A DNA stretch of 64,000 nt from Patescibacteria group bacterium (GTDB lineage Bacteria; Patescibacteriota; Microgenomatia; Levybacterales; UBA12049), in contig DATICB010000008.1 of the NCBI GenBank assembly GCA_035457005.1, forward strand, positions 1,013 through 65,012. The letters run 5' to 3'. Made by a program: the position numbers and the translations under genes. Below are positions 17,365-56,236 of this stretch, piece by piece (position 1 is the first letter of the stretch; each line of letters starts with the position of its first letter). Below the pieces are notes generated by a model. That model was not told the DNA's origin. It did not search any database and was given only the letters and a program-made list of their open reading frames with translations.

Positions 17365-17601
17365 CTATCTACTTTCTTTCCCTTTTTCTGGTTGTTGTGA
17401 TCGTTGGGGGCCTCTATGCAGTTCTGCTTGCTCCTCTCGTGCTGCACTAACTGCGGGTAATTCAGCTGCTGTTCCTTTAGCTGCGTTTCTTCTTGCTACC
17501 TCTCTTGGATCACCAATACGGGGCAATTGCTTAATCATAATAGTAAGAATTTTACCAAAACAAGAACTTGGAGACAAGATGCTAGATAAAGCGGCGGACA
17601 A
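17365..17601 (-). CDS. hypothetical small ORF overlapping lexA 3' end
   Basis: 78-aa ORF in GC-richer patch; overlaps LexA stop by 20 nt; weak. Confidence 0.15.
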   Translation of the reverse strand: MSAALSSILSPSSCFGKILTIMIKQLPRIGDPREVARRNAAKGTAAELPAVSAAREEQAELHRGPQRSQQPEKGKESR

Positions 17602-18211
17602 GTCCGACCACTCTTCCCTGAATGGTAAGTCGTGTTGGGTAAATTGGCTGCATTGTAGAATTTGCTGGTTTTAATACAACTTGTCCTTGCTCGTTATAAT
17701 ACTTTTTAAGTGTTGCCAAATTGTCATCGACTAGCGCAACCACAATATCGCCATTGTGCACTTCTTTTTCTTTTTCTATCACCACATAGTCGCCATCTAA
17801 AATACCATCTTCAATAAGCGACTCTCCTTTTACCTGCAAAACATATGCTGTTTTTTGTCCAGAAATCATGCTTGCCGAAACTTGAAATGTTGCATTTGGG
17901 TCTGTGTGTGGCTCTAAAGGCTTGCCTGCTGCAATGAATCCCATAAGGGGTAATTCTATCGACACTGTATTGCCCCGCATAGTGCTATTGATTTTCTCAT
18001 CAATAACTTTCAAAACGCGTGCATTGCCTTCTACTTTTTGGATATATCCCTTGTCTACTAATGATGCAATAAGTGAATGCACAGTAGAATTGGCTCTGTG
18101 CCCTGTTGCTTGAGCAATTTCGGTGAGTGTAGGGGAATACCCATACTGATTTTGAAATTGAACAATAAATTCTAAGACTTCTCTTTCTTTTCTGTAGACT
18201 ACTCCTGGCAT
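17582..18211 (-). CDS. lexA: LexA-like repressor (wHTH + S24 peptidase), paralog 1
   Basis: N-term aligns with LexA wHTH (REVLEFIVQF...TLTEIAQATGH), S24 motif GESL...K; start set at MPGVVY (18211) by alignment to LexA; tool ORF extends to 18286. Confidence 0.75.
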   Translation of the reverse strand: MPGVVYRKEREVLEFIVQFQNQYGYSPTLTEIAQATGHRANSTVHSLIASLVDKGYIQKVEGNARVLKVIDEKINSTMRGNTVSIELPLMGFIAAGKPLEPHTDPNATFQVSASMISGQKTAYVLQVKGESLIEDGILDGDYVVIEKEKEVHNGDIVVALVDDNLATLKKYYNEQGQVVLKPANSTMQPIYPTRLTIQGRVVGLVRRFI

Positions 18212-18221
18212 AGTATTATAA

Positions 18222-18234
18222 TCGAATATTTCGA
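18222..18234. promoter_or_regulatory. candidate LexA-1 operator: dyad TCGAA-N3-TTCGA
   Basis: TCGAATATTTCGA with perfect 5-bp arms, 11-23 nt upstream of lexA start, between TTGACA and TATAAT hexamers on the lexA strand; resembles Cheo box CGAAC-N4-GTTCG. Confidence 0.4.
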
Positions 18235-18312
18235 GTATTTTTGTCAACCGATCGTATGTTATCTTTTTATAAGCAAACATGATCAACTATGTGTTTTATG
18301 GTAAAATACTAT

Positions 18313-18339
18313 TGTCATTGCGAACGAAGTGAAGCAATC
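18313..18339 (+). repeat. palindromic element type II fragment (TGTCATTGCGA...GCAATC hairpin)
   Basis: TGTCATTGCGAACGAAGTGAAGCAATC; same head as full element at 46785-46860. Confidence 0.6.
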
Positions 18340-18344
18340 TCCAC

Positions 18345-18414
18345 TGTCATCCCGCACTTGATGCGGGATCCAGTTCCTTATTTATATAGATTCCTGATCA
18401 AGTCAGGAATGACA
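18345..18414 (+). mobile_element. MITE-like palindromic element type I in uvrB 5' region
   Basis: TGTCATCCCGCACTTGATGCGGGATCCAG...ATTCCTGATCAAGTCAGGAATGACA; two hairpins with compensatory stem changes relative to other copies; ends 5 nt before uvrB ATG. Confidence 0.8.
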
Positions 18415-18418
18415 TTAA

Positions 18419-20425
18419 ATGTATATGAAATTTCAACTCACATCAAAATTTAAGCCGTCCGGCGATCAGCCAGAGGCAATTAAAAAATTAACACAGGGCA
18501 TTGAAAAAAATGATAAACACCAAGTGCTCCTTGGTGTCACTGGTAGTGGCAAAACCTACACTATGGCCAACGTAATTCAAAATGTTCAAAAGCCAACACT
18601 CATTATTTCCCACAACAAAACACTAGCAGGTCAACTGTATCAGGAATTTAGAGAGTTTTTCCCTAACAACAGTGTCAATTATTTTGTGAGTTACTACGAT
18701 TACTATCAGCCAGAGGCGTACGTCCCAACAACAGATACGTACATTGAAAAAGAGGCAGAAATTAATGAAGAAATCGATAAATTACGACTTTCTGCAACAG
18801 CGAATCTTTTGACTCGAAAAGATGTCATTGTCATTGCCTCGGTAAGCTGCATCTACAATCTTGGCTCGCCTGTTGAGTATGGCAAATTTGTCTTAGAAAT
18901 GGCAAAAGGAATGAAAATCGAAAGCAGAGATATTTTGCTTCGACTCACAGATTTACAATATGAGCGAAATGAGTATGGATTTAAAAGGGGGTCATTTAGA
19001 GTGCGAGGAGAAAATATAGATGTTTTCCCAGCGTACATGGACCATGGTCTTCGGATTGATATACAAAATGGGAAAATAATTGGTCTTTCAGAGTTTGATC
19101 CACTAACTGGCGAAACAGTACAAATACTCAAAAATACCATTGTCTACCCTGCCAAACACTACATGACAGACCCTGCTTCTTACGGTGGTGTTTTCCCTCA
19201 GATTAAAAATGACATGGAAAAACGAGTAAAAGAGCTGACAAGCATGAATAAATTGGTTGAAGCACAAAGAATTAAACAACGGGTAAGTTACGACTTGGAA
19301 ATGATTAATGAAATTGGTTATGTGAATGGTATAGAAAACTACTCGAGATATTTTGATGGACGTGAGCCAGGCCAGCCACCATATACGTTGATTGATTATC
19401 TACAGGCATGCTCCAAAGACTGGTTGCTTCTTGTTGATGAATCGCACATTACTCTTCCTCAAATTCGAGGCATGTACAATGGTGATAGGGCGCGAAAAGA
19501 AACACTGATTGAATACGGTTTCCGCTTGCCATCTGCACTTGATAATAGACCGTTAAAATTTGAGGAATTTATGGGACGGGTCAATCAGGCAGTGTATGTG
19601 TCAGCAACCCCAGACGAATATGAATTATCTCTTTCCGGACAAGACAACATTGCCGAACAACTAATTCGTCCAACTGGCATTGTGGACCCGCAGGTAACAG
19701 TAAAACCAACAGAGGGGCAAATTACTGACCTTATTGCAGAAATTCAAAAAAGAGTTGCAAAAAAGCAGCGAGTCTTAGTAACAACCCTTACAAAAAAAAT
19801 GGCAGAAGAACTGTCTAATTATTTAGAGGAAGGAGGCATAAAAGTGGCATATCTTCACTCTGATATCGAGACAATTAATAGACAAGACATTTTAGATAAT
19901 TTACGAAAAGGTGAATACGACGTATTAGTTGGTATTAATTTATTGCGTGAGGGTATTGATTTGCCAGAAGTTACCTTGGTTGCAATTTTGGATGCAGACA
20001 AAGAAGGATTTCTGAGAAGTAAAACGTCACTCATTCAGACCATGGGAAGAGCTGCGCGAAATATAGACTCAGAAGTTATTTTATATGCAGACACCATGAC
20101 TGGGTCAATGAATGAGGCAATAAGAGAAGTAGAAAGACGAAGAGAGGCACAACTTGCGTACAATAAAAAGCATAATATTACTCCGACAACTATCGAAAAA
20201 GCAATTCGCGAAAGATTGTATGAAGAAGAGGAAGAAGAAGCAACCCATAGGTCCCGGCCAATTGATTTAGTTTTGGAATTAGCAGACAAAGATGTGCTTC
20301 TGCCAGATGAACGGGAGAAGGTTATTGGCAGGCTCAGACAAGAAATGAAAACAGCTGCAAAGAATTTAGATTTTGAAACAGCAGCACTCCTTCGAGATAG
20401 AATAAAACAATTGCAAAACAATTAG
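18419..20425 (+). CDS. uvrB: excinuclease ABC subunit B
   Basis: GDQPEAIKKL, helicase motifs, C-terminal UvrB/UvrC interaction domain; 668 aa. Confidence 0.9.
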   Translation: MYMKFQLTSKFKPSGDQPEAIKKLTQGIEKNDKHQVLLGVTGSGKTYTMANVIQNVQKPTLIISHNKTLAGQLYQEFREFFPNNSVNYFVSYYDYYQPEAYVPTTDTYIEKEAEINEEIDKLRLSATANLLTRKDVIVIASVSCIYNLGSPVEYGKFVLEMAKGMKIESRDILLRLTDLQYERNEYGFKRGSFRVRGENIDVFPAYMDHGLRIDIQNGKIIGLSEFDPLTGETVQILKNTIVYPAKHYMTDPASYGGVFPQIKNDMEKRVKELTSMNKLVEAQRIKQRVSYDLEMINEIGYVNGIENYSRYFDGREPGQPPYTLIDYLQACSKDWLLLVDESHITLPQIRGMYNGDRARKETLIEYGFRLPSALDNRPLKFEEFMGRVNQAVYVSATPDEYELSLSGQDNIAEQLIRPTGIVDPQVTVKPTEGQITDLIAEIQKRVAKKQRVLVTTLTKKMAEELSNYLEEGGIKVAYLHSDIETINRQDILDNLRKGEYDVLVGINLLREGIDLPEVTLVAILDADKEGFLRSKTSLIQTMGRAARNIDSEVILYADTMTGSMNEAIREVERRREAQLAYNKKHNITPTTIEKAIRERLYEEEEEEATHRSRPIDLVLELADKDVLLPDEREKVIGRLRQEMKTAAKNLDFETAALLRDRIKQLQNN

Positions 20426-25026: not shown

Positions 25027-26337
25027 ATGAATGAAGTTGCTGTTAGAGGACAAGAAGTTGGTAGACAAGAAGTTGAAAAACCAACACAACCGCCTACAGA
25101 ACCTGTTTCTTCAGAAAAAGTACCCGAGCAAAAAAAGAAAAGAAAAATTCATTTTAACCTTAAAACAGTGCGAGTTAAGAGAAAATTAATACAAGAACCT
25201 AAGCCAACACCCGCAGAGTTTATGACGCCAAGGCAGTTATATCAGGCAAGAGGATACGAACAGTTTGGGATGAGAAGTGCAGCAGAACAAAATGTCTCCC
25301 TCCAAACGCAGACAGAAAGGCAGATAATCAGAGACGAAAAGCTTGTTGAGCAAGAGCTAGAAAAAGAATACAAACTCGAAGAGCCTCATCACAAGACAAA
25401 AGTATCTTTTGGAGAAAAAGTAAAAAATATTGCAGAAGATTTCCAATGGACGGTCGGAAAATTAACGCGTGGTAATATCGTAAAACATTTACGACAGATC
25501 GCTCACGACCCAGCTCATTACCAAGAAGAGCTGGAAGCAGAATTACAAAGGTCGCTGAATACAATGACAGAACCTTCCGAAGATAGGGTTTTCAGTACGC
25601 TAACGAAATTACAGGCTGGCACAACTGCTGTCGCATCTGTTTTGCCCCCGATTCCATTGGGTGTCGTTTTTGTTGGCCCTATTCCTATCCCGGTTGTGTA
25701 TTCATCGGGAACAATCCTGGTTGAATCTGTTAATAACATACCTAACACAGTAAAAGCATTCAAAGAAAAACGTTTTCGTAAAGGTTTTGCCTACGCAACT
25801 ATGACTACTATTGGCGCATTAACAGGATTTATCCCTATGTCGCACCATTTTACCAATACACTGTATACAGAAATACTGCAAAAACCATTCGATCACGCAG
25901 AAACGCACGGTATGCTTCAGATTGTTGACTCTCTTTTTGCCAATACTGCAACTGCTCAACAGCATGCGTTGGGAAAGCAGCTTGTTGATAAGGCTACTAA
26001 ACAGTATGCCGCAACACACGGATCAGCCGTACCTCTTCAGGAGAGATTAAGAGACATACAGTCATTTGAGCAACAAAAGAAGGATGTGCTATTGCAAAAA
26101 AGAGCGCAACTAGAATTAGACCTTTTAGCACTTCCAGAAAGAAAGAAGATCTCACAAAAAATAGCCTTAATTACAAAACCTACGGAGATAAAAAAACGAA
26201 TTGCAATTACAGGAGAACATTTTCGACTAGGACAGGAATTAATTGATGTTGAGCACAGATTACACACGATTCCACAACTTTTAGAAATTATTCGAGCAAG
26301 TACTGTTGAGGCAAAACAAACTACCTTGGGAGCGTGA
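25027..26337 (+). CDS. hypothetical protein
   Basis: Start placed at MNEVAV (25027) 6 nt after TTGACA-18-TACGAT hexamers; tool ORF began 24928; one internal hydrophobic stretch. Confidence 0.4.
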
Positions 26338-26983
26338 GCACATTACCAGAGAAAATCATATCAGGATTTGCTAAGTGATTAGCATTTGCTATTTTTACCC
26401 ACTGATACCCATCACCATACGCTCTGACTGCAATGTCCCAAAGACTATCATCTTTCTTCACTGTATAGGTGTTGGCAGTGATTTTATCTGTTTGCGTAGT
26501 TGGCAGCATCTGGCCTAACTCGCTGGGTTTTGGTGCATTGGGCATAAGTAGTTTGTCTCCAGTAAAAATTGTTGAAGGATTAGCAATGTGATTAACAGAG
26601 GCTATATCAGTCCATTTGTAGCCGTTGTTGTAGACACTCTGTGCTATTGTCCAGAGTGAATCATTTTGCTTAACAATGTAGTACGTATTTCCATTTTCTT
26701 GTACCGTTGTACCGGGTGTTGGACTAACTACAGCAGTTGGCGTTGGTCCTGTTGAAAGAGATGATGCTTCTTTGGTATTAGTATGTGACTGTTGACGAAT
26801 TAGAGTAACGCCAAAAAGAATCGCAATAATGACTACTACAACCCCAAGGAGAAAACTACTGTAGGACTCTGTCCAGTTGATTCCCTTAGATTTTTTTTGT
26901 TGACGAGACAAATCAACGGCCTTTGCAGGTCGTCCTCTTTTACTTGTCTTTTTAACTATTTCCTTTTTCCGAGGCATATACAA
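26321..26983 (-). CDS. LysM-domain peptidoglycan-binding membrane-anchored protein
   Basis: Basic N-terminus + TM helix, two LysM repeats ([15 protein letters not shown]..., [15 protein letters not shown]...). Confidence 0.75.
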
Positions 26984-29970: not shown

Positions 29971-30870
29971 ATGAATATTTATAACCAAATAGCTTCTAAC
30001 AAATGGAAGACGTGGCTTATTATGGCGTTGTTTATTGTGCTCATAACGTCAGTTGGTTTTGTCTTTGGCAAAGCAACAGGATACGGCCTTTCCTATGCTG
30101 GCATTGCACTTATTTTGGCGGGTATCATATCTTTTGGAAGCTATTATTATTCGGACAAACTTGTCCTGGCAACCTCAGGCGCTCGCCCTTTGAGCAAAAA
30201 GCAGGATCCTATTTTGTATGATATTGTTGAGAATTTGGCAATCGGAGACGGTATTCCTATGCCTAAGATTTATCTTATGGACGATAGCGGACCCAATGCG
30301 TTTGCGACAGGACGTGACCCAAAACACGCCGTTATTGTAGTAACAACAAGTCTTCGCGAGATGATGAACAAAGCAGAATTAGAAGGTGTTTTGGCACACG
30401 AGTTGTCCCACATAAAAAATTATGACACGAGACTTATGGGCATTGTAGCGATTTTGGTAGGATTTATTGCTATTTTGGCAGACTTTTTTATGAGAAGTCT
30501 TTGGTGGGGAGGCGGTAGAAAAGATGATAGAGAAAGTGGCCAAATGCAAAGCCTTTTTATTATCTTAGGAATTGTTTTTGCCATTCTCACACCTATTATT
30601 GCAACGCTTATTCAACTTGCAGTAAGTCGTAAGCGGGAATTTCTTGCAGATGCATCCGGAGCCCTTCTTACTCGTTATCCAGAAGGGTTGGCTCAGGCAC
30701 TAGAAAAATTGGCAAAAGACACACGGCCAACACTTCATGCAAGCAATGCAACAGCACATCTTTTTATAGAAAATCCCTTTGGGGGCAAATCTCATAAAAC
30801 ATTATTTGCAGGACTTTTTGATACCCACCCACCTATTGAAGAACGAATAAAAATCTTGCGGTCCATGTAG
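29971..30870 (+). CDS. htpX: M48-family zinc protease HtpX
   Basis: HELSHIKNYD HExxH motif, 4 TM segments; classic lemA-htpX pairing. Confidence 0.85.
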   Translation: MNIYNQIASNKWKTWLIMALFIVLITSVGFVFGKATGYGLSYAGIALILAGIISFGSYYYSDKLVLATSGARPLSKKQDPILYDIVENLAIGDGIPMPKIYLMDDSGPNAFATGRDPKHAVIVVTTSLREMMNKAELEGVLAHELSHIKNYDTRLMGIVAILVGFIAILADFFMRSLWWGGGRKDDRESGQMQSLFIILGIVFAILTPIIATLIQLAVSRKREFLADASGALLTRYPEGLAQALEKLAKDTRPTLHASNATAHLFIENPFGGKSHKTLFAGLFDTHPPIEERIKILRSM

Positions 30871-30881
30871 TACAATAATAC

Positions 30882-30933
30882 TGTCATCCTGAACGAAGTG
30901 AAGGATATATTCTTCGTTTTACTCAGAATGACA
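30882..30933 (+). mobile_element. MITE-like palindromic element type III (TGTCATCCTGAACGAAG...CAGAATGACA)
   Basis: 52-bp imperfect palindrome with TGTCAT/ATGACA termini ending 6 nt before murT ATG; shares 17-mer TTCGTTTTACTCAGAAT with 44310 region. Confidence 0.75.
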
Positions 30934-30938
30934 AAACA

Positions 30939-39346: not shown

Positions 39347-42300
39347 ATGACAGCAGATTTTGTTCATCTTCACAATCATTCAGAATTTTCACTCCTTGAC
39401 GGGTTATCCAAAGTAAAAAAAATGGTTGCCCGTGCAAAAGAGTTGAATATGAAAGCCCTGGCAATTACCGACCATGGGTCAATGTACGGGACAATCTATT
39501 TTTACAAAGCATGCCTTGAAGCAGGAATCAAACCTATTATTGGGTGTGAAATTTACATAACTGCTGGGAGTAGATTTGAAAAAGGAGAAAAAGGATATAA
39601 CCACCTTATTCTGCTTGCAGAAAATAATATAGGGTACAAAAATTTAATGAAAATAGTATCCAAGGCACATTTGGAAGGATATTATTATAAACCACGAACA
39701 GACTTAGATTTACTCAGAGAGCACCATGAAGGCATTATCTGTTTGTCTGCATGTGTCAATGGATTTGTTTCAGAGCCACTTCTTGATGGACAACAGCAAG
39801 AAGCAGAAAAACGGGCCAAAGCACTGAGTGACATTTTTGGGAAAGATCATTTTTACTTAGAATTGCAACAGCATATTCATGTTCCACCACAAGAAAAACT
39901 CAATCCACTTCTTATTGCAATGAGCAAAAAATTGGGTATTCCTTTGACCGCAACAAATGATAACCACTACACCAATGCCAATGACGCAGAGGCACAAGAA
40001 ATTCTCCTTTGCATTCAAACACAAACAACAATTGATACCCCAAATAGAAAATTGTCTATGATTGACTCCCCTGATTTTTACATGAAATCGCAAGACGAAA
40101 TGGAAAGTCTTTTTGCCCAAACCCCCGAAGCAGTGACCAATACAGGAAAAATTGCAGATATGTGTCAGGTGGACATAACACTAGGAAAATGGGTTATGCC
40201 AAAATACGAAATTCCAGAAGGTACTACACTGGATGAGTATTTGGAAAAACATGTTTTTGAAGGAGCAAAAAAACGATATGGCGATGTGACAGAAGAAATA
40301 AAAGAGCGTATTGCATATGAGCTGTCAGTAATTTTTAAGAAAGGCTATTCTACATATTTTTTAACAGTTGCGGATTTTGTTAACTGGGCCAAAGATCATG
40401 GCATTAGTGTGGGTCCAGGAAGAGGCTCAGCAGCAGGAAGTGTTGTCTCGTATTGTCTGAATATTACCGACATAGATCCATTCTTTTTTAAACTGCCTTT
40501 TGAAAGATTTTTGAATCCACAAAGACCTTCTGCGCCAGATATTGATTTGGATTTTGCAGACACAAGACGTGAGGAAGTCATTCAATACGTTACACAAAAA
40601 TACGGTGCAGATAAAGTTGCACAAATTATTACTTTTGGTACTATGGAAGCCAAAGGCTCTGTCCGCGATGTCGGCCGTGCTCTTGGCATGCCATATGCAG
40701 GACCAGACAGAATTTCCAAAATGATTCCTTTGGGCTGGCAGGGACACGCAATGACCTTAGACACTGCGCTTGAGCAATCTCCAGATTTAAAACGAGCATA
40801 CAATTCCGAAGAGGAAACAAGACGTCTTATTGATTTGGCAAAAAATATAGAAGGCGTTGTACGACACGCATCTGTCCATGCAGCGGGTGTGGTCATTGCA
40901 GACAAACCGCTTACCGAATATGTGCCGATCCAACGAGAGCCAAACGGTGGAGAAAAAATTGTTACTCAGTATGACATGTATACAGTCGGCGAAGACGGTG
41001 TTGGACTTTTAAAAATGGATTTTTTGGGTCTTCGCAATCTTACCATTATTGAAGAAGCCTTAAAATTTATTAAACAAACCAGAAATATAGATATTAATAT
41101 TTCAACAGTCCCCCTTGACGATGAGAGAACCTACAATCTTTTGGCAAGCGGTGAAACAACTGGTATTTTCCAACTAGAATCTGCTGGCATGAGACGTTAT
41201 ATTAAAGATCTTAAACCAACGGCAATTTATGATCTCATGGCCATGGTCGCACTATACAGACCAGGCCCTATGGCAAATATTCCAGAATTTATTGCCCGCA
41301 AACACAATCCCAAACTTATCGCTTTCCCCGATCCACGTCTTACCGATGCGCTGCAACAATCTTACGGTATGCTTGTCTACCAGGATGATGTTTTACTTAC
41401 GACTATTCAACTTGCAGGCTATACCTGGCTTGACGCGGACAAATTCCGTAAGGCAATGGGTAAAAAAATTCCCAGTGAAATGAAAAAGCAGAAAGAGAAA
41501 TTTCTCACAGGTGCTGTAGAAAACGGATTGTCACAAAAACGTGCAGACGAAATCTACGAGCTAATCGCTCCTTTTGCAGGGTATGGATTTAATAAAGCCC
41601 ATGCTGCATGTTATGCAACCATTGCCTACCGAACAGCATATCTTAAGGCAAATTACTCAGTGGAATTTATGACTGCACTTCTCACTGCAGAATCCAGAGG
41701 GACCACAGGCCCAACAAAAGCCGAGAAAATTTCCCAAGCAGTTGCAGAATGTAAAAGATTGTCAATTACTGTCTTGCCACCAGACATCAATGCGTCAGAA
41801 GCAGAATTTTCTATTGAAGAAAATTCAAAAATTCGTTTTGGACTTTCTGCTATTAAAAATGTTGGGGGCGCTGCTATTACAACAATTCTTGGCGCAAGAA
41901 GTAATGGACCATTTCTGTCTCTAGATGATTTCTGCAAAAGGGTTGATTTGGGTGCAGTTAACAAAAAAACACTTGAGTCACTGATTAAAGCAGGTGCTAT
42001 GGATAGATTTGGTAATCGCGCTATGCTTTTGGCTTCCCAAATAGATGTGGCAGAAAAAATTGCCAAAACCAAAAAACAGCAATCCGAGGGACAAGATTCT
42101 TTATTTGGCGACATGGATGAAACCATTACTATGAAAGAATCTATCGATTATTCAGATATTGACGATTTTTCTCATAACGAAAAATTGGCATTTGAAAAAG
42201 AGTTTTTAGGATTTTACCTAACAGCGCATCCGCAAGCAAAATATTTGGAAACAATAAAAAAAGTTATTACCCATGACTTAGATTTATTACCAGAAGAAAA

Positions 42301-42562
42301 CGGTGTGATAGTAAAAATTGGTGGCATTGTAGAGCAGGTAAAGCGTATTTTTACGAGAAAATCCAATGCAGAAATGGCATTTGTTGCCATTGCCAACGAA
42401 AAAGGCACTGTTATTGAATGTGTTGTTTTTCCAAAAGTATTTGATATGTACCGCGAAATTTTACTCCCTGATACTGTTTTACTCTTTGAAGGAAAATTAG
42501 ACAGCAAAGACGATCGACCGGTACTTATTGTAAATTCTATCTCCAAACCACAGGTAGTATGA
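39347..42562 (+). CDS. dnaE: DNA polymerase III alpha subunit
   Basis: PHP domain HLHNHSEFSLLDG, polymerase core, OB-fold C-terminus; 1071 aa. Confidence 0.9.
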   Translation: MTADFVHLHNHSEFSLLDGLSKVKKMVARAKELNMKALAITDHGSMYGTIYFYKACLEAGIKPIIGCEIYITAGSRFEKGEKGYNHLILLAENNIGYKNLMKIVSKAHLEGYYYKPRTDLDLLREHHEGIICLSACVNGFVSEPLLDGQQQEAEKRAKALSDIFGKDHFYLELQQHIHVPPQEKLNPLLIAMSKKLGIPLTATNDNHYTNANDAEAQEILLCIQTQTTIDTPNRKLSMIDSPDFYMKSQDEMESLFAQTPEAVTNTGKIADMCQVDITLGKWVMPKYEIPEGTTLDEYLEKHVFEGAKKRYGDVTEEIKERIAYELSVIFKKGYSTYFLTVADFVNWAKDHGISVGPGRGSAAGSVVSYCLNITDIDPFFFKLPFERFLNPQRPSAPDIDLDFADTRREEVIQYVTQKYGADKVAQIITFGTMEAKGSVRDVGRALGMPYAGPDRISKMIPLGWQGHAMTLDTALEQSPDLKRAYNSEEETRRLIDLAKNIEGVVRHASVHAAGVVIADKPLTEYVPIQREPNGGEKIVTQYDMYTVGEDGVGLLKMDFLGLRNLTIIEEALKFIKQTRNIDINISTVPLDDERTYNLLASGETTGIFQLESAGMRRYIKDLKPTAIYDLMAMVALYRPGPMANIPEFIARKHNPKLIAFPDPRLTDALQQSYGMLVYQDDVLLTTIQLAGYTWLDADKFRKAMGKKIPSEMKKQKEKFLTGAVENGLSQKRADEIYELIAPFAGYGFNKAHAACYATIAYRTAYLKANYSVEFMTALLTAESRGTTGPTKAEKISQAVAECKRLSITVLPPDINASEAEFSIEENSKIRFGLSAIKNVGGAAITTILGARSNGPFLSLDDFCKRVDLGAVNKKTLESLIKAGAMDRFGNRAMLLASQIDVAEKIAKTKKQQSEGQDSLFGDMDETITMKESIDYSDIDDFSHNEKLAFEKEFLGFYLTAHPQAKYLETIKKVITHDLDLLPEENGVIVKIGGIVEQVKRIFTRKSNAEMAFVAIANEKGTVIECVVFPKVFDMYREILLPDTVLLFEGKLDSKDDRPVLIVNSISKPQVV

Positions 42563-44874: not shown

Positions 44875-44931
44875 TGTCATCCTGAGCAAAGCGAAGGATC
44901 TTATTGAGATTCCGGGTAAACCAGAATGACA
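44875..44931 (+). mobile_element. MITE-like palindromic element type III in atpF-atpH spacer
   Basis: TGTCATCCTGAGCAAAGCGAAGGATC...CCAGAATGACA, followed by two more ATGACA repeats the last of which supplies the atpH ATG. Confidence 0.75.
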
Positions 44932-44939
44932 CATGACAT

Positions 44940-45272
44940 ATGACAAAAAAAACAATAACAGAATTAGTGAAGGCAAGTTATACAAAAGAGATACTGAATA
45001 GCAAAAAAGTTGAAAGGATTGTCAAGCTTTTGTCGCGTTCTGATTTAAAACAATATATTCGAGGACTGAAGCTTTTTGAAAAATCTCGCACAATTTCTCT
45101 TGTTTTACCAGACAAAAAATTTTATAATAAGACATTGTTGGGAAATATAAAAAAACAAGTGAGACTTATTGAGGACAAATCATTACTTTTAGGAGCAAAA
45201 ATTATTGATAATGATATGGTCTACGATATGAGTCTTAAGAATAATTTGGATACATTTTTACAAAGTCTATGA
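44940..45272 (+). CDS. atpH: F0F1 ATP synthase delta subunit (short form)
   Basis: C-terminal [28 protein letters not shown] matches delta C-terminus; only 110 aa; operon position between b and alpha. Confidence 0.5.
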
Positions 45273-49637: not shown

Positions 49638-50051
49638 TTATCTTCTGCGGCTATAGCGTCCAGTCACTATATTTGCCACAAAATGTTCTCCCGCATTGTA
49701 CGCAAGTTTTGTGAGAAGAAAGGTCGCGGTAGTAGCTAAAACAGGGTTTTCTGTAACCCATTGCATATCTGCTCCAGAGGATGATCCGAGAAAATCTTGG
49801 AAATGATTACTCGTATCTAGCACGCCGTGTGGCGCCATAATAACAGCGTAATCAATAGGAACCGCCAAAGCCAAACCCATTGAACTCGATAGATTCTCAT
49901 TGGCAACACTATTAACAACTACCCTTGTGGAAAGAGGAAGCAATAGATTAAATAAACCGGCTAGCCCACCCAGCGATGCAGAACCGCTCTCCGTACGTAC
50001 GACACGTGCTGCCTCAACCCCAGATGCTTGTCCTACTAGTTCTCCCAACAT
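49638..50051 (-). CDS. hypothetical protein (GC-richer)
   Basis: 137-aa ORF convergent with atp operon; no confident family. Confidence 0.3.
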   Translation of the reverse strand: MLGELVGQASGVEAARVVRTESGSASLGGLAGLFNLLLPLSTRVVVNSVANENLSSSMGLALAVPIDYAVIMAPHGVLDTSNHFQDFLGSSSGADMQWVTENPVLATTATFLLTKLAYNAGEHFVANIVTGRYSRRR

Positions 50052-50651: not shown

Positions 50652-50891
50652 GTGAAGAAAATAATTACCGAAGTCCTTGGCTGGTACGGGACAATTGCCA
50701 TTGTTGGCGCATATGCATTGGTAAGTTTCTCTCTTATTAAATCTTCTAGTCTTTTGTATCAACTGCTCAATATAACTGGGTCACTTGGGATTGTTGCTAT
50801 TTCACTCAATAAAAAGGCTTATCAACCTGCTGTTTTGAATATTATTTGGGCTGTTATCGCAACAATTGCTATTTTTAGTCTTCTTCGATAA
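50652..50891 (+). CDS. small hypothetical membrane protein (2-3 TM)
   Basis: 79 aa, hydrophobic helices. Confidence 0.35.
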   Translation: MKKIITEVLGWYGTIAIVGAYALVSFSLIKSSSLLYQLLNITGSLGIVAISLNKKAYQPAVLNIIWAVIATIAIFSLLR

Positions 50892-50895
50892 ATTC

Positions 50896-50924
50896 TTGAT
50901 TTTTTTCTGCAAAAAAGATATACT
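50896..50924 (+). promoter_or_regulatory. promoter-like hexamers TTGATT-17-TATACT, 9 nt upstream of ATG 50934
   Basis: -35 and -10 hexamer pair with 17-nt spacing; no detectable SD. Confidence 0.4.
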
Positions 50925-50933
50925 GTCCACTCT

Positions 50934-51239
50934 ATGAAAAGACCATTGGAATCAAATCAACTTTCATTGCTTGCAGCTCCAACCAGAAGAGAAACGCCCA
51001 CAATTCAACCTGTTGTTTTTACCATCAATGGTGACAGAATGCATCCCGGTGATCGTTGGCCAGTAACAATTGACGGAACAACATATGAATTTTATTCTGA
51101 CCCTCATAATGCTGGGAATGATTCGTACGGCCCAGTCGGTGGATGGATTAAGACTGGATATTATCTAAGAGCTACGCATCCAAATTCAAGAAGACTTATT
51201 TTACCAAAAGGCGTAACTTGGGAGGACAGAACTTCGTAA
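50934..51239 (+). CDS. hypothetical protein (GC-rich cassette gene 1)
   Basis: 101 aa; GC-richer than flanks; no family. Confidence 0.35.
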   Translation: MKRPLESNQLSLLAAPTRRETPTIQPVVFTINGDRMHPGDRWPVTIDGTTYEFYSDPHNAGNDSYGPVGGWIKTGYYLRATHPNSRRLILPKGVTWEDRTS

Positions 51240-51246
51240 AATAGTT

Positions 51247-51462
51247 ATGGCAACAGATAGACAACCGTGTCCGAATGCAACATGTCCTCAGGGGAAGGTT
51301 CCAGGAATGGATGGCATACCTTATTGCGCATACGAGGCATACAGAATAAATCCAGCTCACCCCAGAGATTTTGAAACAGCAGGACAAACAATAGGGAGAC
51401 ACTGTCCTTTTGCTGCTGATGTAAGAGGTAGAGGGCAAAGAAACCCACCAAGAACATCTTAG
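51247..51462 (+). CDS. hypothetical small Cys-containing protein (GC-rich cassette gene 2)
   Basis: 71 aa with CPNATCP...C...C spacing suggestive of metal-binding knuckle. Confidence 0.3.
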   Translation: MATDRQPCPNATCPQGKVPGMDGIPYCAYEAYRINPAHPRDFETAGQTIGRHCPFAADVRGRGQRNPPRTS

Positions 51463-51486
51463 TCATTTTTGATATCTTCTGACATA

Positions 51487-51515
51487 TTGACTCTTTAGTA
51501 CGATCGTACTAATCT
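51487..51515 (+). promoter_or_regulatory. LexA-2 promoter-like hexamers with embedded 16-bp perfect palindrome TAGTACGATCGTACTA (AGTAC-N4-GTACT box)
   Basis: TTGACT(51487-92)-17-TAATCT(51510-15); palindrome 51496-51511 sits in the spacer; matches the RGTAC-N4-GTWCB box class. Confidence 0.5.
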
Positions 51516-51524
51516 TGATACAGA

Positions 51525-51559
51525 TGTCATCCTGAGCGAATAAAGTGAGTCGAAGGATC
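51525..51559 (+). repeat. truncated type III palindromic element in lexA-2 5' UTR
   Basis: TGTCATCCTGAGCGAAtaaagtgagtCGAAGGATC; head identical to 44875 copy, tail missing. Confidence 0.6.
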
Positions 51560-51571
51560 TCATCCTTGATT

Positions 51572-52138
51572 ATGGATCTCACAAAGGCTATAGAACAAAT
51601 TAGAAAATTCTTTGTTGCTCACAAAAGAATGCCAAGCTACCAGGAAATAGCTTTCTTATTTCATTATTCCACCAAAGCATCAAGTCAGCACTTAGTTAAA
51701 AAGTTGTTAGAACTGGGTGTACTGGACAAAGATGAGAATGGCAAGCTAGTGCCAAAAAATCTTTTTACTATCCCCAACCTTGGCATTATTAAAGCAGGCT
51801 ACCCAACTGTCGCGGACATGCAAGCAGATGCTATAGATGTGTATGATTATTTATTAAATAGAACAGGGACAGTATTTTCCCTTACGGTTAAAGGTGATTC
51901 GATGATAGACGAAGGAATTCACGAAGGTGACATTGTTATTATCGAGCGCGAACGATCTCCCCGCAATGGCGATGTAGTCGCTGCCCAAGTAGATAATGAA
52001 TGGACAGTGAAGTATTTTCAAGAAAAATTTGGAGAAATAACCCTTGTCCCTGCCAACAAAAATTATCCAATTATCAAGCCAAGGGAGTCATTGGAAATCG
52101 GTGGTGTTGTGGTGAGCGTTATTCGAAAGTATCACTAA
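51572..52138 (+). CDS. lexA: LexA repressor, paralog 2
   Basis: wHTH N-domain, S24 motifs VKGDSMIDEGIHEGD and ...TVKYF; start moved to MDLTKAIEQ (51572) because the tool ORF N-terminus (51545) is made of repeat-element sequence. Confidence 0.75.
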   Translation: MDLTKAIEQIRKFFVAHKRMPSYQEIAFLFHYSTKASSQHLVKKLLELGVLDKDENGKLVPKNLFTIPNLGIIKAGYPTVADMQADAIDVYDYLLNRTGTVFSLTVKGDSMIDEGIHEGDIVIIERERSPRNGDVVAAQVDNEWTVKYFQEKFGEITLVPANKNYPIIKPRESLEIGGVVVSVIRKYH

Positions 52139-52146
52139 AACCTTGT

Positions 52147-52377
52147 ATGACAGAACAAATTACATTACAAAATACATCAATTAGCTTTGTTCCTTCTTTT
52201 TCTGGAAGCGGATGGGAGACATCGCTTGTTCCAAGACTCGAAAGAAGTCACAGTGAGCAGCCAGAATTACGACTAACATTTGGTTGGATAAAACAGATGC
52301 TCTTGAAAATGCAAAACATAAGGCGGGAAGGAGGTGCTGCTTCATGGACGACTGCAATTGCTAGACTATTTCTCTAA
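52147..52377 (+). CDS. hypothetical small protein downstream of lexA-2
   Basis: 76-aa ORF starting 9 nt after lexA stop; GC-richer; weak. Confidence 0.2.
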   Translation: MTEQITLQNTSISFVPSFSGSGWETSLVPRLERSHSEQPELRLTFGWIKQMLLKMQNIRREGGAASWTTAIARLFL

Positions 52378-54010: not shown

Positions 54011-56083
54011 TTATTGCTTGTTTGGGGTTGAAGATGCTCTCGGAGTCAAAGCTACATCTAATCCCAATTCTCTTAATTCTTCAACTGTAACCTGCCCATT
54101 TTGAACTCTTTCAACAAAGTGAGTTCTTGTTTCTTCAGTCTGTCCATTTTTCTCAGCTGCTGCAACTTGTTGTTCAACTAAGGCTCGCAGCGCATCTCTC
54201 TTCCAATCGGGAGTATCTTCTGGAAGACCTGCTAACAGAGTCTCTCCTTCTTCTCGCGCTTTATCTGGCGTCATAGTAGATAAATTATGTATTCTGGTAT
54301 TTCTTTGCTCATCAGACACTCCAGAAGTCAATTCCACTTGTCGCTCCGCAGCTTGCTGTGCAACTTCCGCATCAAGTCCAAATTCTTCCAAAACTCCAGC
54401 ATAACCTCTCACGTCTCCTTCGGCTAGTCGATTTCTTCCTCTTGCCTTTGGACCTTCACCATACAATTGATCAGCCAATTCCTGCGCTTCCTCGGTCGTA
54501 ATAGTTCCACCTGATTCGGTTACTAAAGCATTAGTTAACATTGCATTTGCCGGATCTCCTTCCAAACCTCCAACAGCCGCAACAGATCGTCTCATAATAA
54601 GGTTTGCTGCCTCTACGCCTGACAATTGTTTACCGCTCTCGTCGGTAATCTGCAAGTCGCCTCTTAAACTCCACAAAAGGTACGCTGGATCGTGCTCTTG
54701 CTCTGAAGATAACTGTCCTGTTCGCTGCGATGCGCGCCTCTCATCTAAAAATTCTCCTGCATCGTGCATCATCTTTTCATCAACAGTGGCTGTTTGTGGA
54801 TTTGGTTCAGATGGGGTTTGTAAATCAACATCACTTCTTGGAATACTTGTCACTGCAAGAAATTCTGCATCTGAAAGTGAGCTTAATGTTCTCGCCTGCT
54901 CGGCAGATGCTTGAAGTGGGATTTTTTGATTTTCTACTACAACCACTCTCTCTGCTGTATTGGGAAGACCTGCTTGTCTGAGCCGTTCAAGACTACGCGC
55001 AGTACCTAGTATCGGCCTACCACCTGCTGCTTGTATTTCTTGTAATCTTTTTTCATCAGAGAGCGACTGCTCAACAACATGTCCCGACAACATAACACCA
55101 TTACCCGGCTCAATGACCTCAACTTGCATCGTTCTTCCTGAGACAGGAGTAAATAATCGTGAACTTATAAATAAAGCTCCTGTATCAGAAAGAGATGACT
55201 GCAGTGCCTCTTGTACAGATTTATCATTTATATTGCCGTTTCCTGAATCTACTACTACTGATTGACCGTTTACAACAATATCTGCATTTGTTGTGTGTCT
55301 TCCTGACTCGTCAGTAGTTCTTGGTCTAAACCGAGCACTTGCTACAATAACTCCTCCAGTAATTGCACCCTGTACTGGATGGGCGGGTTGACCATCTCTA
55401 TTAGAGTGAAGAGGAGCATCTCGAAATGCATACGTGCCATCACGGTTGATTACCACACCAGTACCATGTGCAAATCTTGGGTCTGACATGACCATAGAGA
55501 CATCAACGCTGCCATCACTGTTGACGGCAACATTAACAGCCGGTTGCGCACCAACAATTGATTCACCTTCACCCCTTGTTCTGTCTGCATCAACATTTAC
55601 AGGACCTAAGCTAAATCTATGTGTTGCACCTCCTGCCAACTCGCTCACTCGGTGCATCATCGCAACTTCAGATGCTTCTAAAATGCGAAGTGCCGGAGCA
55701 TTGTGTATTCGTAACCACTCACGGGCTTGTTGCTGTCCTTTTTCCGAAGCAATGTCCGTTATACCAGCTTTTTGCGCTTCACCTTCTGAAAGAGAGACTT
55801 GTCCACGTATTCCCATTTGATGTGCCATTTCCAATTCAATATTTCTTGCTGCTTCAGATTGACGCGATTGTCTTTTTTCTCTATTAACGTGTCTATGCGA
55901 ACCAATAAAGTCCACTATTGCCTGACGACCACCAGGAGTCATGAGTGTTCGAAGAAGAGATAAGTGCGACCTCGGACCGTGCTCGCCTCTAACCGCCTGA
56001 CCAACGCCAGCAACATGTCTTTCCTGCAACGGTGCAGTTGTCTGTTGTGCTTGAGCTTCTGTTGATGTCGATCCTTCTGGCAT
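54011..56083 (-). CDS. large acidic hypothetical protein, compositionally atypical (~50% GC)
   Basis: Start placed at MPEGSTST (56083) directly after TTGACA-17-TTATGCT hexamers; tool ORF extended to 56236; no TM, no known motif; adjacent to tRNA-Thr. Confidence 0.45.
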   Translation of the reverse strand: MPEGSTSTEAQAQQTTAPLQERHVAGVGQAVRGEHGPRSHLSLLRTLMTPGGRQAIVDFIGSHRHVNREKRQSRQSEAARNIELEMAHQMGIRGQVSLSEGEAQKAGITDIASEKGQQQAREWLRIHNAPALRILEASEVAMMHRVSELAGGATHRFSLGPVNVDADRTRGEGESIVGAQPAVNVAVNSDGSVDVSMVMSDPRFAHGTGVVINRDGTYAFRDAPLHSNRDGQPAHPVQGAITGGVIVASARFRPRTTDESGRHTTNADIVVNGQSVVVDSGNGNINDKSVQEALQSSLSDTGALFISSRLFTPVSGRTMQVEVIEPGNGVMLSGHVVEQSLSDEKRLQEIQAAGGRPILGTARSLERLRQAGLPNTAERVVVVENQKIPLQASAEQARTLSSLSDAEFLAVTSIPRSDVDLQTPSEPNPQTATVDEKMMHDAGEFLDERRASQRTGQLSSEQEHDPAYLLWSLRGDLQITDESGKQLSGVEAANLIMRRSVAAVGGLEGDPANAMLTNALVTESGGTITTEEAQELADQLYGEGPKARGRNRLAEGDVRGYAGVLEEFGLDAEVAQQAAERQVELTSGVSDEQRNTRIHNLSTMTPDKAREEGETLLAGLPEDTPDWKRDALRALVEQQVAAAEKNGQTEETRTHFVERVQNGQVTVEELRELGLDVALTPRASSTPNKQ

Positions 56084-56236
56084 ATATCTAGCATAAGATG
56101 TTTTGTGAAAAATTGTCAAGCAGGAAATTCTGTATCTTTGCACAAAAGACAAATATTTCTTATAATAAAAGGTGTTGGAGACTAAGACCTGTGTGATGTA
56201 ACTCAGGGTAGAGTAGCTCTTTTGGCCCGCCTGCAT

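Follow-up and report, generated by a model that had tools for sequence, protein, structure and literature searches.

A divergent second LexA with a predicted operator in its own promoter and an apparent translesion-cassette ancestry in a reduced Patescibacteria genome

Why a bacterium with a reduced genome should keep two LexA repressors, and what the second of them might control, is the question raised by a stretch of 64 kb from a Patescibacteria group bacterium (Microgenomatia; Levybacterales; GenBank assembly GCA_035457005.1, contig DATICB010000008.1), hereafter referred to as the window. Its gene content is that of reduced-genome housekeeping (ATP synthase, enolase, PPDK, GatAB, DnaE, PolX, MurT/GatD and glycosyltransferases), and it encodes two LexA paralogues, lexA-1 and lexA-2, with non-overlapping predicted operators (Table 1). 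A preliminary description of the locus had proposed that the two genes head separate damage-responsive regulons or, alternatively, that lexA-2 and a two-gene cassette lying upstream of it form an acquired module. The reading that we consider probable is that LexA-2 is a self-repressed regulator of cassette ancestry, accompanied by a small downstream frame (ORF-A) and left behind by a polymerase that has been lost, that lexA-1 is the canonical copy, and that the two upstream orphan genes (ORF1 and ORF2) are unrelated to the unit.

The Peptidase_S24 domain (PF00717) of LexA-2 is recognized with an E-value of 1.5e-26 in Pfam, which was searched together with NCBIfam and PHROGs, and in an alignment of 29 LexA-2 family members the Ala75-Gly76 cleavage site, Ser110 (in GDSM) and Lys147 are invariant, in agreement with the intact Ser/Lys motifs of the preliminary description. 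T. maritima LexA has its own AG at the aligned position. The best sequence match among solved structures is full-length Thermotoga LexA (3k2z, residues 7-186, E 6e-19), and E. coli LexA is also matched over its full length, by sequence and by fold. The AlphaFold2 (AF2) model built on the family alignment, with a predicted local distance difference test (pLDDT) score of 82.7, comprises an N-domain built as a winged helix-turn-helix (HTH), with three helices and a beta wing at residues 3-61 and a pLDDT of 82-91 there, and a C-terminal S24 domain; Foldseek aligns the model over 190-196 columns with full-length LexA 3k2z and with the LexA-DNA complex 3jso. In comparison with the strain-level contig L001 (97% identical), lexA-2 shows 28 synonymous and 3 nonsynonymous differences, that is, proportions of nonsynonymous (pN) and synonymous (pS) differences of 0.007 and 0.229, and against other relatives pN is 0.05-0.10 and pS about 0.8. 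Such values point to strong purifying selection on a gene that appears to be functional and not decaying. LexA-2 is hence predicted to be a self-cleaving repressor, its cleavage being presumably stimulated by RecA. An exact-protein look-up returned no record for the LexA-2 of the window (with either start codon) or for P0001.

In the promoter of lexA-2 a perfect palindrome, TTAGTACGATCGTACTAA, fills the spacer between the -35 and -10 hexamers and overlaps the latter; the preliminary description had correctly reported the TTGACT-17-TAATCT hexamers and a perfect palindrome within them, giving its length as 16 bp, two short of the actual 18 bp. It is the sole perfect 18-bp palindrome in the window, where 0.46 are expected by shuffling, and the sole zero-mismatch occurrence there of AGTACNNNNGTACT. 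These counts alone would not rule out chance; what does so is the presence of a GTAC-N4-GTAC box at the same position in all ten orthologous lexA-2 promoters recovered (the window, L001, L002, L082, L083, L088, L089, L091, L092 and L093), which span 72-98% protein identity. The orthologous promoters follow the pattern TT(G/T)AC(A/T)-N4-5-GTACG(A/G)(T/A)CGTACTA-(-10), and the three elements (-35, box and -10) can be aligned between relatives, with TATTGT, TATTCT or TATTTT as the -10 of the latter. Because the same box stands in the same place in every one of these promoters, we interpret the palindrome as the predicted autoregulatory operator of lexA-2. Just 5' of the -35, a further conserved block, TGATATCTTCTGA, is kept in the window, L001, L002, L083, L088, L089, L091 and L092, L082 and L093 having variants of it, and the DNA further upstream is unrelated between genomes.

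Assignment of the box to the RGTAC-N4-GTWCB class, as put forward in the preliminary description, stands for 13 of the 14 positions of RGTACNNNDGTWCB and fails at the fourth spacer base, a C that is excluded by the D of this Nostoc consensus. Half-sites drift within the LexA-2 family between GAAC, GTAC and AAAC. Distant members (35-48% identity) from Saccharibacteria, Kaiserbacteria, the Planctomycetes-Verrucomicrobia-Chlamydiae (PVC) group, Syntrophales and beta-proteobacteria carry GAAC-N4-GTTC in the same slot between -35 and -10, and this slot is occupied by TGTAC-N4-GTACA in L087 and L096 and by GAAAC-N4-GTTTC in L095.

The extent of the LexA-2 regulon was addressed by scanning the window and approximately 95 kb of relatives, a close-clade total of approximately 159 kb, for GTAC-N4-GTAC. 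In the window and the 95 kb of relatives no perfect GTAC-N4-GTAC was found upstream of any other gene, and the close-clade total contains the motif only at lexA-2 promoters and in two coding-sequence matches, the latter as chance expects. Since the box is unique to lexA-2 promoters in the scanned DNA, the visible LexA-2 regulon appears to be its own operon, and a broad second regulon is unsupported. The proposal of two separate damage-responsive regulons was to be abandoned if the palindrome had no other occurrence upstream of a gene; none was found in the scanned DNA and, in the broad sense, the proposal is not supported.

Several weaker resemblances to the box were recorded during these scans. 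Apart from the operator, the window contains one exact GTAC-N4-GTAC, at 26701; it is intragenic, lies in a gene for a LysM-domain protein (26321-26983, minus strand) and is probably due to chance, although YneA, which inhibits division in the SOS response of B. subtilis, is also a LysM protein. Matches to GTACNNNNGTAC with at most one mismatch are enriched in the window (19 against 8.6 expected, a number reached in 0 of 100 shuffles). As candidate operators the one-mismatch sites were rejected, nearly all of them being intragenic (atpB, a VTT/DedA-type gene and the LysM gene, among others). One such box, TAGTACAATAATACT at 30868-30883, extends over the stop codon of a gene for an M48 peptidase, with murT 56 nt further downstream, and is directly followed by a copy of a repeat element.

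The genomic setting of lexA-2 bears on its history. The ATP synthase operon, a NUDIX gene and a variable slot ahead of lexA-2, and a small ORF, another NUDIX gene, Dus and the gene for a large orphan protein behind it, make up a neighbourhood conserved in the window, L082, L083, L088, L089 and L002, which argues against recent acquisition and indicates that lexA-2 has been vertically inherited. Hundreds of LexA-2 orthologues occur in Patescibacteria, many of them beside Y-family polymerases. Outside the close clade, and among the matches listed, a Y-family polymerase gene (IMS/IMS_C) lies directly downstream in 23 of 48 LexA-2-like loci, beginning 16-823 nt downstream of lexA in the same orientation, as opposed to 2 of 18 LexA-1-like loci, relatives at 55-65% identity being covered in part; L087, L095, L096, L004, L005 and L053 are examples, with others, of relatives in which the polymerase adjoins lexA. 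In the Patescibacteria L087, L095 and L096 and in the Omnitrophota L047 and L065 the operon takes the form lexA-B-IMS, B being a family of small genes (approximately 80-100 aa) between lexA and the polymerase with the motif ...KIKW..R.Y...FSV(T/S)DGN...L.W.LEE. A SRAP gene is divergent from lexA in L096, and on the 878-kb contig L095 (6516-7179) two tandem B-family genes separate lexA from the Y-family polymerase, with an operator, GGAAACGATCGTTTCC, that displays a third half-site variant. An 85-aa ORF called in L095 was considered as a possible homologue of ORF-A and rejected by hidden Markov model (HMM) search; it overlaps the first B copy in another frame. No IMS or Y-family polymerase gene was found in the window or in the close-clade loci, and the DnaE gene (39347-42562) lies 9 kb from lexA-2; its context is unrelated and no box accompanies it. 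LexA-2 thus seems to be a regulator from a translesion-synthesis cassette lineage and, because its operon is devoid of a polymerase, we count it among LexA paralogues with a cassette ancestry and not among the cassettes themselves.

The small ORF reported to follow lexA-2 is indeed present, and every contig with an ORF-A homologue that reaches far enough (the window, L001, L002, L082, L083, L088, L089 and L091-L094) carries lexA-2 immediately upstream. On these grounds, we define the operon in this genome, with moderate confidence, as lexA-2 plus ORF-A. Underneath ORF-A lie the remains of a B gene, the translation of which (QNKLHYKIH...LFLEADGRHRLF) aligns with LHYTK...LFSVTDGN.AFHL of intact B in L002, L082, L083, L093, L094 and L087. 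B is truncated and interrupted by stops in a clade formed by the window, L001, L088, L089, L091 and L092; within it the ORF-A frame shows pN of 0.27-0.36 versus pS of 0.53-0.83, control frames giving a ratio of about 0.75, and ORF-A stays open without indels at 65% nucleotide identity, lexA synonymous sites being saturated. Where B is intact (L002, L082, L083, L093 and L094) it shows pN of 0.09-0.29 versus pS of 0.33-0.65, and the same sister lineages contain a longer frame, A, in the -1 frame of B. In the overlap, frame A has pN close to pS, and its conserved GWE motif corresponds to the TDGN of B read one base out of frame. Past the B stop, however, frame A continues for a 32-codon tail in which L082 and L002 differ at 7 nonsynonymous and 19 synonymous sites, Arg CGT/AGA and Leu TTA/CTT being among the changes, and from this clean third-position divergence it follows that the tail is, in all appearance, translated. 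ORF-A, then, probably arose by overprinting on B.

The overlapping frames that follow lexA in the sister lineages (B of approximately 80 aa, A of 90-101 aa) are located at 9237-9577 in L082, 8430-8773 in L002, 7164-7546 in L083, 1949-2292 in L093 and 241-572 in L094. Both show signs of selection, and gene callers annotated the longer A and missed B. The B copy of L082 lacks an ATG.

Under the scenario that we propose, the ancestral operon would have consisted of lexA, a small accessory gene of the B family and a Y-family translesion polymerase. In the clade of the window the polymerase would have gone from the locus and B would have been truncated, with ORF-A, in the -1 frame of B, remaining under selection. 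A LexA-2 dimer bound to GTAC-N4-GTAC between the -35 and the -10 would block RNA polymerase at its own promoter; on DNA damage, RecA filaments would stimulate autocleavage at Ala75-Gly76 and lexA-2 and ORF-A would be derepressed. The controlled unit would be correspondingly small, comprising lexA-2 and the 76-aa ORF-A.

Table 1. Features of the lexA-2 locus and of its canonical paralogue (positions in the window)
Feature	Position	Strand	Remarks
lexA-2 promoter-like hexamers	51487-51515	+	TTGACT 51487-51492, 17 nt, TAATCT 51510-51515; read from sequence
Predicted LexA-2 operator	51495-51512	.	perfect 18-bp palindrome TTAGTACGATCGTACTAA, core GTAC-N4-GTAC
Conserved block TGATATCTTCTGA	51470-51482	+	just 5' of -35; marks the 5' edge of the lexA-2 regulatory region
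Truncated short-repeat copy (TGTCATCCTGAGCGAA...GAAGGATCT)	51525-51560	+	between -10 and lexA-2 ATG
lexA-2	51572-52138	+	188-aa two-domain LexA: winged HTH and S24 self-cleaving domain
ORF-A	52147-52377	+	76 aa, directly after lexA-2; probably co-transcribed
B-gene relic	52151-52276	+	in frame +1 with respect to ORF-A; some 38 codons missing at the N-terminal end, stops present
ORF1/ORF2 promoter-like site TTGATT-17-TATACT	50896-50924	+	scan match 9/12; ATG 10 nt after -10
ORF1	50934-51239	+	101-aa lineage-restricted orphan
ORF2	51247-51462	+	71-aa orphan, four Cys
lexA-1	17582-18208	-	Pfam LexA_DNA_bind and S24; canonical paralogue
lexA-1 promoter dyad TCGAATATTTCGA	18222-18234	.	between TTGACA and TATAAT

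The lexA-1 gene, divergent from uvrB (18419-20425), scores 172.6 bits against TIGR00498, above the cutoff, and the dyad in its promoter has one zero-mismatch occurrence in the window, at lexA-1 itself. LexA-1 and LexA-2 are 31% identical. Among the fetched loci, the nearest relatives of LexA-1 are canonical LexAs (Magasanikbacteria L060, Saccharimonadales L051, Acidobacteria, Chloroflexi and others) and those of LexA-2 belong to a separate, cassette-type LexA group, so that the suggestion of two paralogues with different operators (TTAGTACGATCGTACTAA versus TCGAATATTTCGA) is upheld and a recent duplication is not. The two proteins are best described, from their sequences, as old divergent paralogues with different DNA-binding domains and different predicted operators. 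In L051 and L060, two Patescibacteria with a LexA-1-like protein, a TTCGG-N6-TTCGG direct repeat is located between the -35 and the -10, approximately 40-60 nt upstream of lexA. A direct-repeat LexA motif for Patescibacteria is mentioned in PMC7739468, citing Sanchez-Osuna, Barbe & Erill 2017, and the TTCGG repeats may be the motif alluded to there.

The two genes upstream of lexA-2 tell a different story. Their TTGATT-17-TATACT promoter, noted in the preliminary description and recovered by the promoter scan, is identical in L001 and contains no GTAC or TCGA dyad, hence no box for either LexA. ORF1 and ORF2 match no family in Pfam, NCBIfam or PHROGs, as the preliminary description had anticipated. 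Its description of the pair as GC-rich is accurate only in part: overall GC is 41.5% in ORF1 and 46.8% in ORF2, versus 38.8% in the window, but ORF1 falls within the range of host genes (maximum 42.6%) and GC at third codon positions (GC3) is host-like, at 26.5% in ORF1 and 26.4% in ORF2 against 29.5 +/- 2.5% in host genes. The GC excess of the pair resides in codon positions 1 and 2 and therefore reflects amino-acid composition, not foreign DNA. The codon signal is frame-specific for both genes, and the log-likelihood of ORF1 is positive in its own frame only. A HMMER search of 1.84 billion representatives retrieved one true homologue of ORF1, P0002 (71% identity, with the same NUDIX/CBU_0592 neighbours). 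For ORF2 there is only the strain-level copy P0003 on L001 (99% identity). Matches of ORF1 to repeat proteins of 1.7-6.7 kaa were rejected as homology, being the sum of weak matches with 9/37 identities. The pair is absent from all relatives except a strain-level contig, and the same slot holds a 99-aa orphan in L082, a 124-aa orphan together with part of a transposase in L088 and an opposite-strand HTH protein in L002, and is empty in L083 and L089. No direct or inverted repeats flank the pair beyond chance, and the scan detected no terminator between ORF2 and lexA-2; about 8 nt separate the ORF2 stop from the conserved regulatory block of lexA-2. ORF1 and ORF2 are best read as a lineage-specific insertion of orphan genes in a variable slot that forms no part of the lexA-2 unit, to which they would be linked at most by possible read-through.

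Different explanations of the locus were weighed against these data. That lexA-2 and the ORF1/ORF2 pair constitute a recently acquired mobile module, as the preliminary description had allowed, would fit the GC content of the pair (43.3%, the 90th percentile of the window), its absence from related genomes and the mosaic pattern between the two strains, in which the flanks are 10 times less diverged synonymously than lexA-2, as in a recombination mosaic. Yet lexA-2 and its promoter occupy the same chromosomal position in all relatives devoid of the pair, the GC3 of the pair (26%) is like that of the host, ORF1 and ORF2 have a promoter of their own upstream of the operator, no flanking repeats, integrase or transposase are found here, and the conserved lexA-2 block begins immediately past ORF2, pointing to separate histories; we regard a joint acquisition as very improbable. 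Even less credit can be given to the notion that LexA-2 is a CI-like repressor from a prophage or mobile element and not a cellular LexA. In PHROGs its S24 domain has further matches among repressor and UmuD-like families, but the matches to lambda CI are confined to this C-domain, the N-domain is a LexA-type winged HTH and the structural matches are to full-length LexA, the gene is surrounded by housekeeping functions (NUDIX, Dus and ATP synthase) with no phage genes nearby, and the many Patescibacteria orthologues next to Y-family polymerases speak for a cellular regulator. A genuine second damage regulon, with GTAC-N4-GTAC boxes outside the window (at recA, for instance, at genes of the nucleotide pool or at a translesion polymerase that has been relocated) and the SOS response split between the two LexAs, merits closer attention. 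Two coexisting paralogues with distinct operators, both under selection, are what one would expect of it, the window covers part of the genome, and a one-mismatch site, AGTACAATAATACT, is intergenic and upstream of murT at 30869. Nonetheless, this site extends over the stop of the gene before it, murT is not a repair gene, no other perfect box precedes any gene in the scanned DNA, and the characterised second LexAs of Leptospira and Xanthomonas bind their own promoter only (PMC3789691), all of which makes a second regulon of this kind unlikely.

The nature of ORF-A is the other point on which explanations part. It might be no gene at all, but an open frame left over from the decay of B, with LexA-2 regulating only itself. 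In this case the GWE motif would simply be the TDGN of B in the -1 frame, the near equality of pN and pS in frame A wherever B is intact would be expected, and neither the lack of a family match for ORF-A in Pfam, NCBIfam and PHROGs, nor the low confidence of its single-sequence AF2 model (pLDDT 59, uninformative), nor the different C-terminus in L088 would call for explanation. On the other hand, the frame is open, indel-free and has pN below pS in the clade where B is dead, the 32-codon tail changes mostly at synonymous sites and a C-terminal ...RLFL is kept in five lineages; we consider it improbable that ORF-A is no gene. At the opposite end, ORF-A may have been born in the -1 frame of B, coexisted with it as an overlapping gene and outlived both B and the polymerase, LexA-2 being kept solely as its damage switch. 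This elaboration is put forward tentatively, and we find it doubtful in its entirety. Several observations weigh against the self-repressed LexA-2 that we favour. LexA-2 scores 102.5 bits against TIGR00498 and so fails the equivalog threshold (cutoff 110.95), even if the alignment runs almost end to end (residues 8-187 versus profile positions 13-202 of 203), and it has no match to LexA_DNA_bind in Pfam; it is because of these two results that we call it a divergent LexA. The -10 of the window, TAATCT, has 3 of 6 matches to TATAAT, was not called by the promoter scan and is weaker than in relatives, and the leader insert described below stands between the promoter and the lexA-2 start, a good Shine-Dalgarno sequence being lacking, which leaves the expression level in this strain uncertain. 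The evidence for constraint on ORF-A comes from a few short pairwise comparisons near saturation. The match of the B family to DUF6504 (PF20114) is sub-threshold, 4 of 7 members hitting profile positions 6-49 of 103 with E-values of 0.0075-0.07 and 14-17 bits (cutoff 24.2). The scan for GTAC boxes was limited to the window and the approximately 95 kb of relatives, and boxes may occur elsewhere, as at a relocated Y-family polymerase or recA. Finally, the claims on operator, binding, cleavage and expression rest on computation throughout.

The leader insert just mentioned distinguishes this strain from its relatives. In the latter, 7-10 nt separate the -10 from the lexA-2 ATG, and a leaderless lexA-2 mRNA is implied there. 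In the window and L001 a truncated repeat copy separates the -10, which has drifted to TAATCT, from the ATG; the insert is absent from all other relatives. Full copies of the element are found at 30883 and 44876. The predicted leader hairpin of the insert shows no greater stability than shuffled sequences (z +1.29) and, despite the insert, lexA-2 is still under selection between the window strain and L001. The repeat, TGTCATCCTGA(G/A)CGAA...GAAGGAT...CCAGAATGACA, resembles a miniature inverted-repeat transposable element (MITE) and is intergenic at its three positions (30883-30935, 44876-44940 and 51525-51560). The intergenic region between lexA-1 and uvrB (18290-18410) is filled with related units, GTCATTCCTGA...TCAGGAAT and GGATCCCGC...GCGGGATGACA.

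Second LexA proteins are known from several bacterial groups. Abella and colleagues are said to have described, in 2007, a lexA2-imuA-imuB-dnaE2 cassette in Pseudomonas putida; the motif of P. putida LexA2 is reported to be GTAC-N4-GTGC-like. As in that cassette, the second LexA examined here is tied to a damage-inducible mutagenesis cassette, but imuA-imuB-dnaE2 are missing and no polymerase is left in the operon. There is likewise a resemblance to umuDC operons, since in relatives the S24-domain gene of LexA-2 type is followed directly by an IMS/IMS_C polymerase, the tail of which weakly matches the UmuC-type DUF4113, and the UmuD model scores 90 bits on the C-domain of LexA-2 versus 64 on that of LexA-1; unlike UmuD, LexA-2 retains a DNA-binding domain and a predicted operator, and this genome segment contains no polymerase. 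The LexA2 proteins of Leptospira interrogans and Xanthomonas offer the closest parallel in kind, namely a divergent second LexA next to a canonical one, with a different palindrome in its own promoter and a very small regulon. The Leptospira gene, however, resides in a prophage region, whereas lexA-2 is chromosomal and syntenic in a Patescibacterium with a reduced genome. With regard to the box, the 14-bp dyad, in which 4 bp separate half-sites of the GTAC/GAAC type, resembles the RGTACNNNDGTWCB consensus of Nostoc and the GAAC-N4-GTTC of B. subtilis (PMC3091678), the latter sequence being found in the same slot of LexA-2 relatives. LexA-2 itself is no orthologue of cyanobacterial LexA, its box has a C as fourth spacer base and the half-sites drift within the family. 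The model outlined by the Erill lab in PMC8565304, where Bacteroidetes provide another instance of coexisting paralogues, involves LexA duplication, motif divergence and a shrinking regulon of one copy. In outline, lexA-2 agrees with this model in that one copy and its motif have diverged and the regulon of one paralogue has shrunk, and departs from it in that both copies persist and the divergent one has taken over no regulon and has, if anything, lost cargo. The Patescibacteria SOS network of Sanchez-Osuna, Barbe & Erill 2017, as cited in PMC7739468 and PMC8565304, concerns the same phylum-level group.

The coexistence of LexA paralogues with different motifs is therefore a known phenomenon, and the case of lexA-2 leaves the current understanding of LexA unchanged. 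What it adds is an instance in Patescibacteria and a cassette without its polymerase, placing this second LexA in a widespread lineage of cassettes formed by LexA plus a Y-family polymerase, here in stripped-down form. It would provide a natural example of the decay of an SOS mutagenesis cassette in which the self-repressed regulator stays, possibly along with a new overlapping-frame gene. In addition, the footprinted GTAC-N4-GTAC operator could be used in mapping SOS regulons of uncultured bacteria of the Candidate Phyla Radiation (CPR).

Some minor observations concern the surroundings of the locus. Between the window (50880-52370) and L001, divergence is mosaic, with the synonymous value of lexA-2 (0.229) contrasting with pS of 0.02-0.06 in ORF1, ORF2 and ORF-A, and the two promoter/intergenic stretches compared (150 nt) show zero differences. 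Approximately 171 bp of a CBU_0592-family membrane gene (window 50691-50876) are apparently missing from L001, with endpoints between the direct repeats ACAATTGCCATTGTT and ACAATTGCTATTTTT; this gap may reflect either a true deletion or an error of assembly. Two minus-strand genes nearby encode proteins without a Pfam or NCBIfam family, one of 137 aa (49638-50051, GC 46.1%) and one of 741 aa (54011-56236, GC 44.7%), and at the same position relatives encode proteins of 800-900 aa without Pfam matches.

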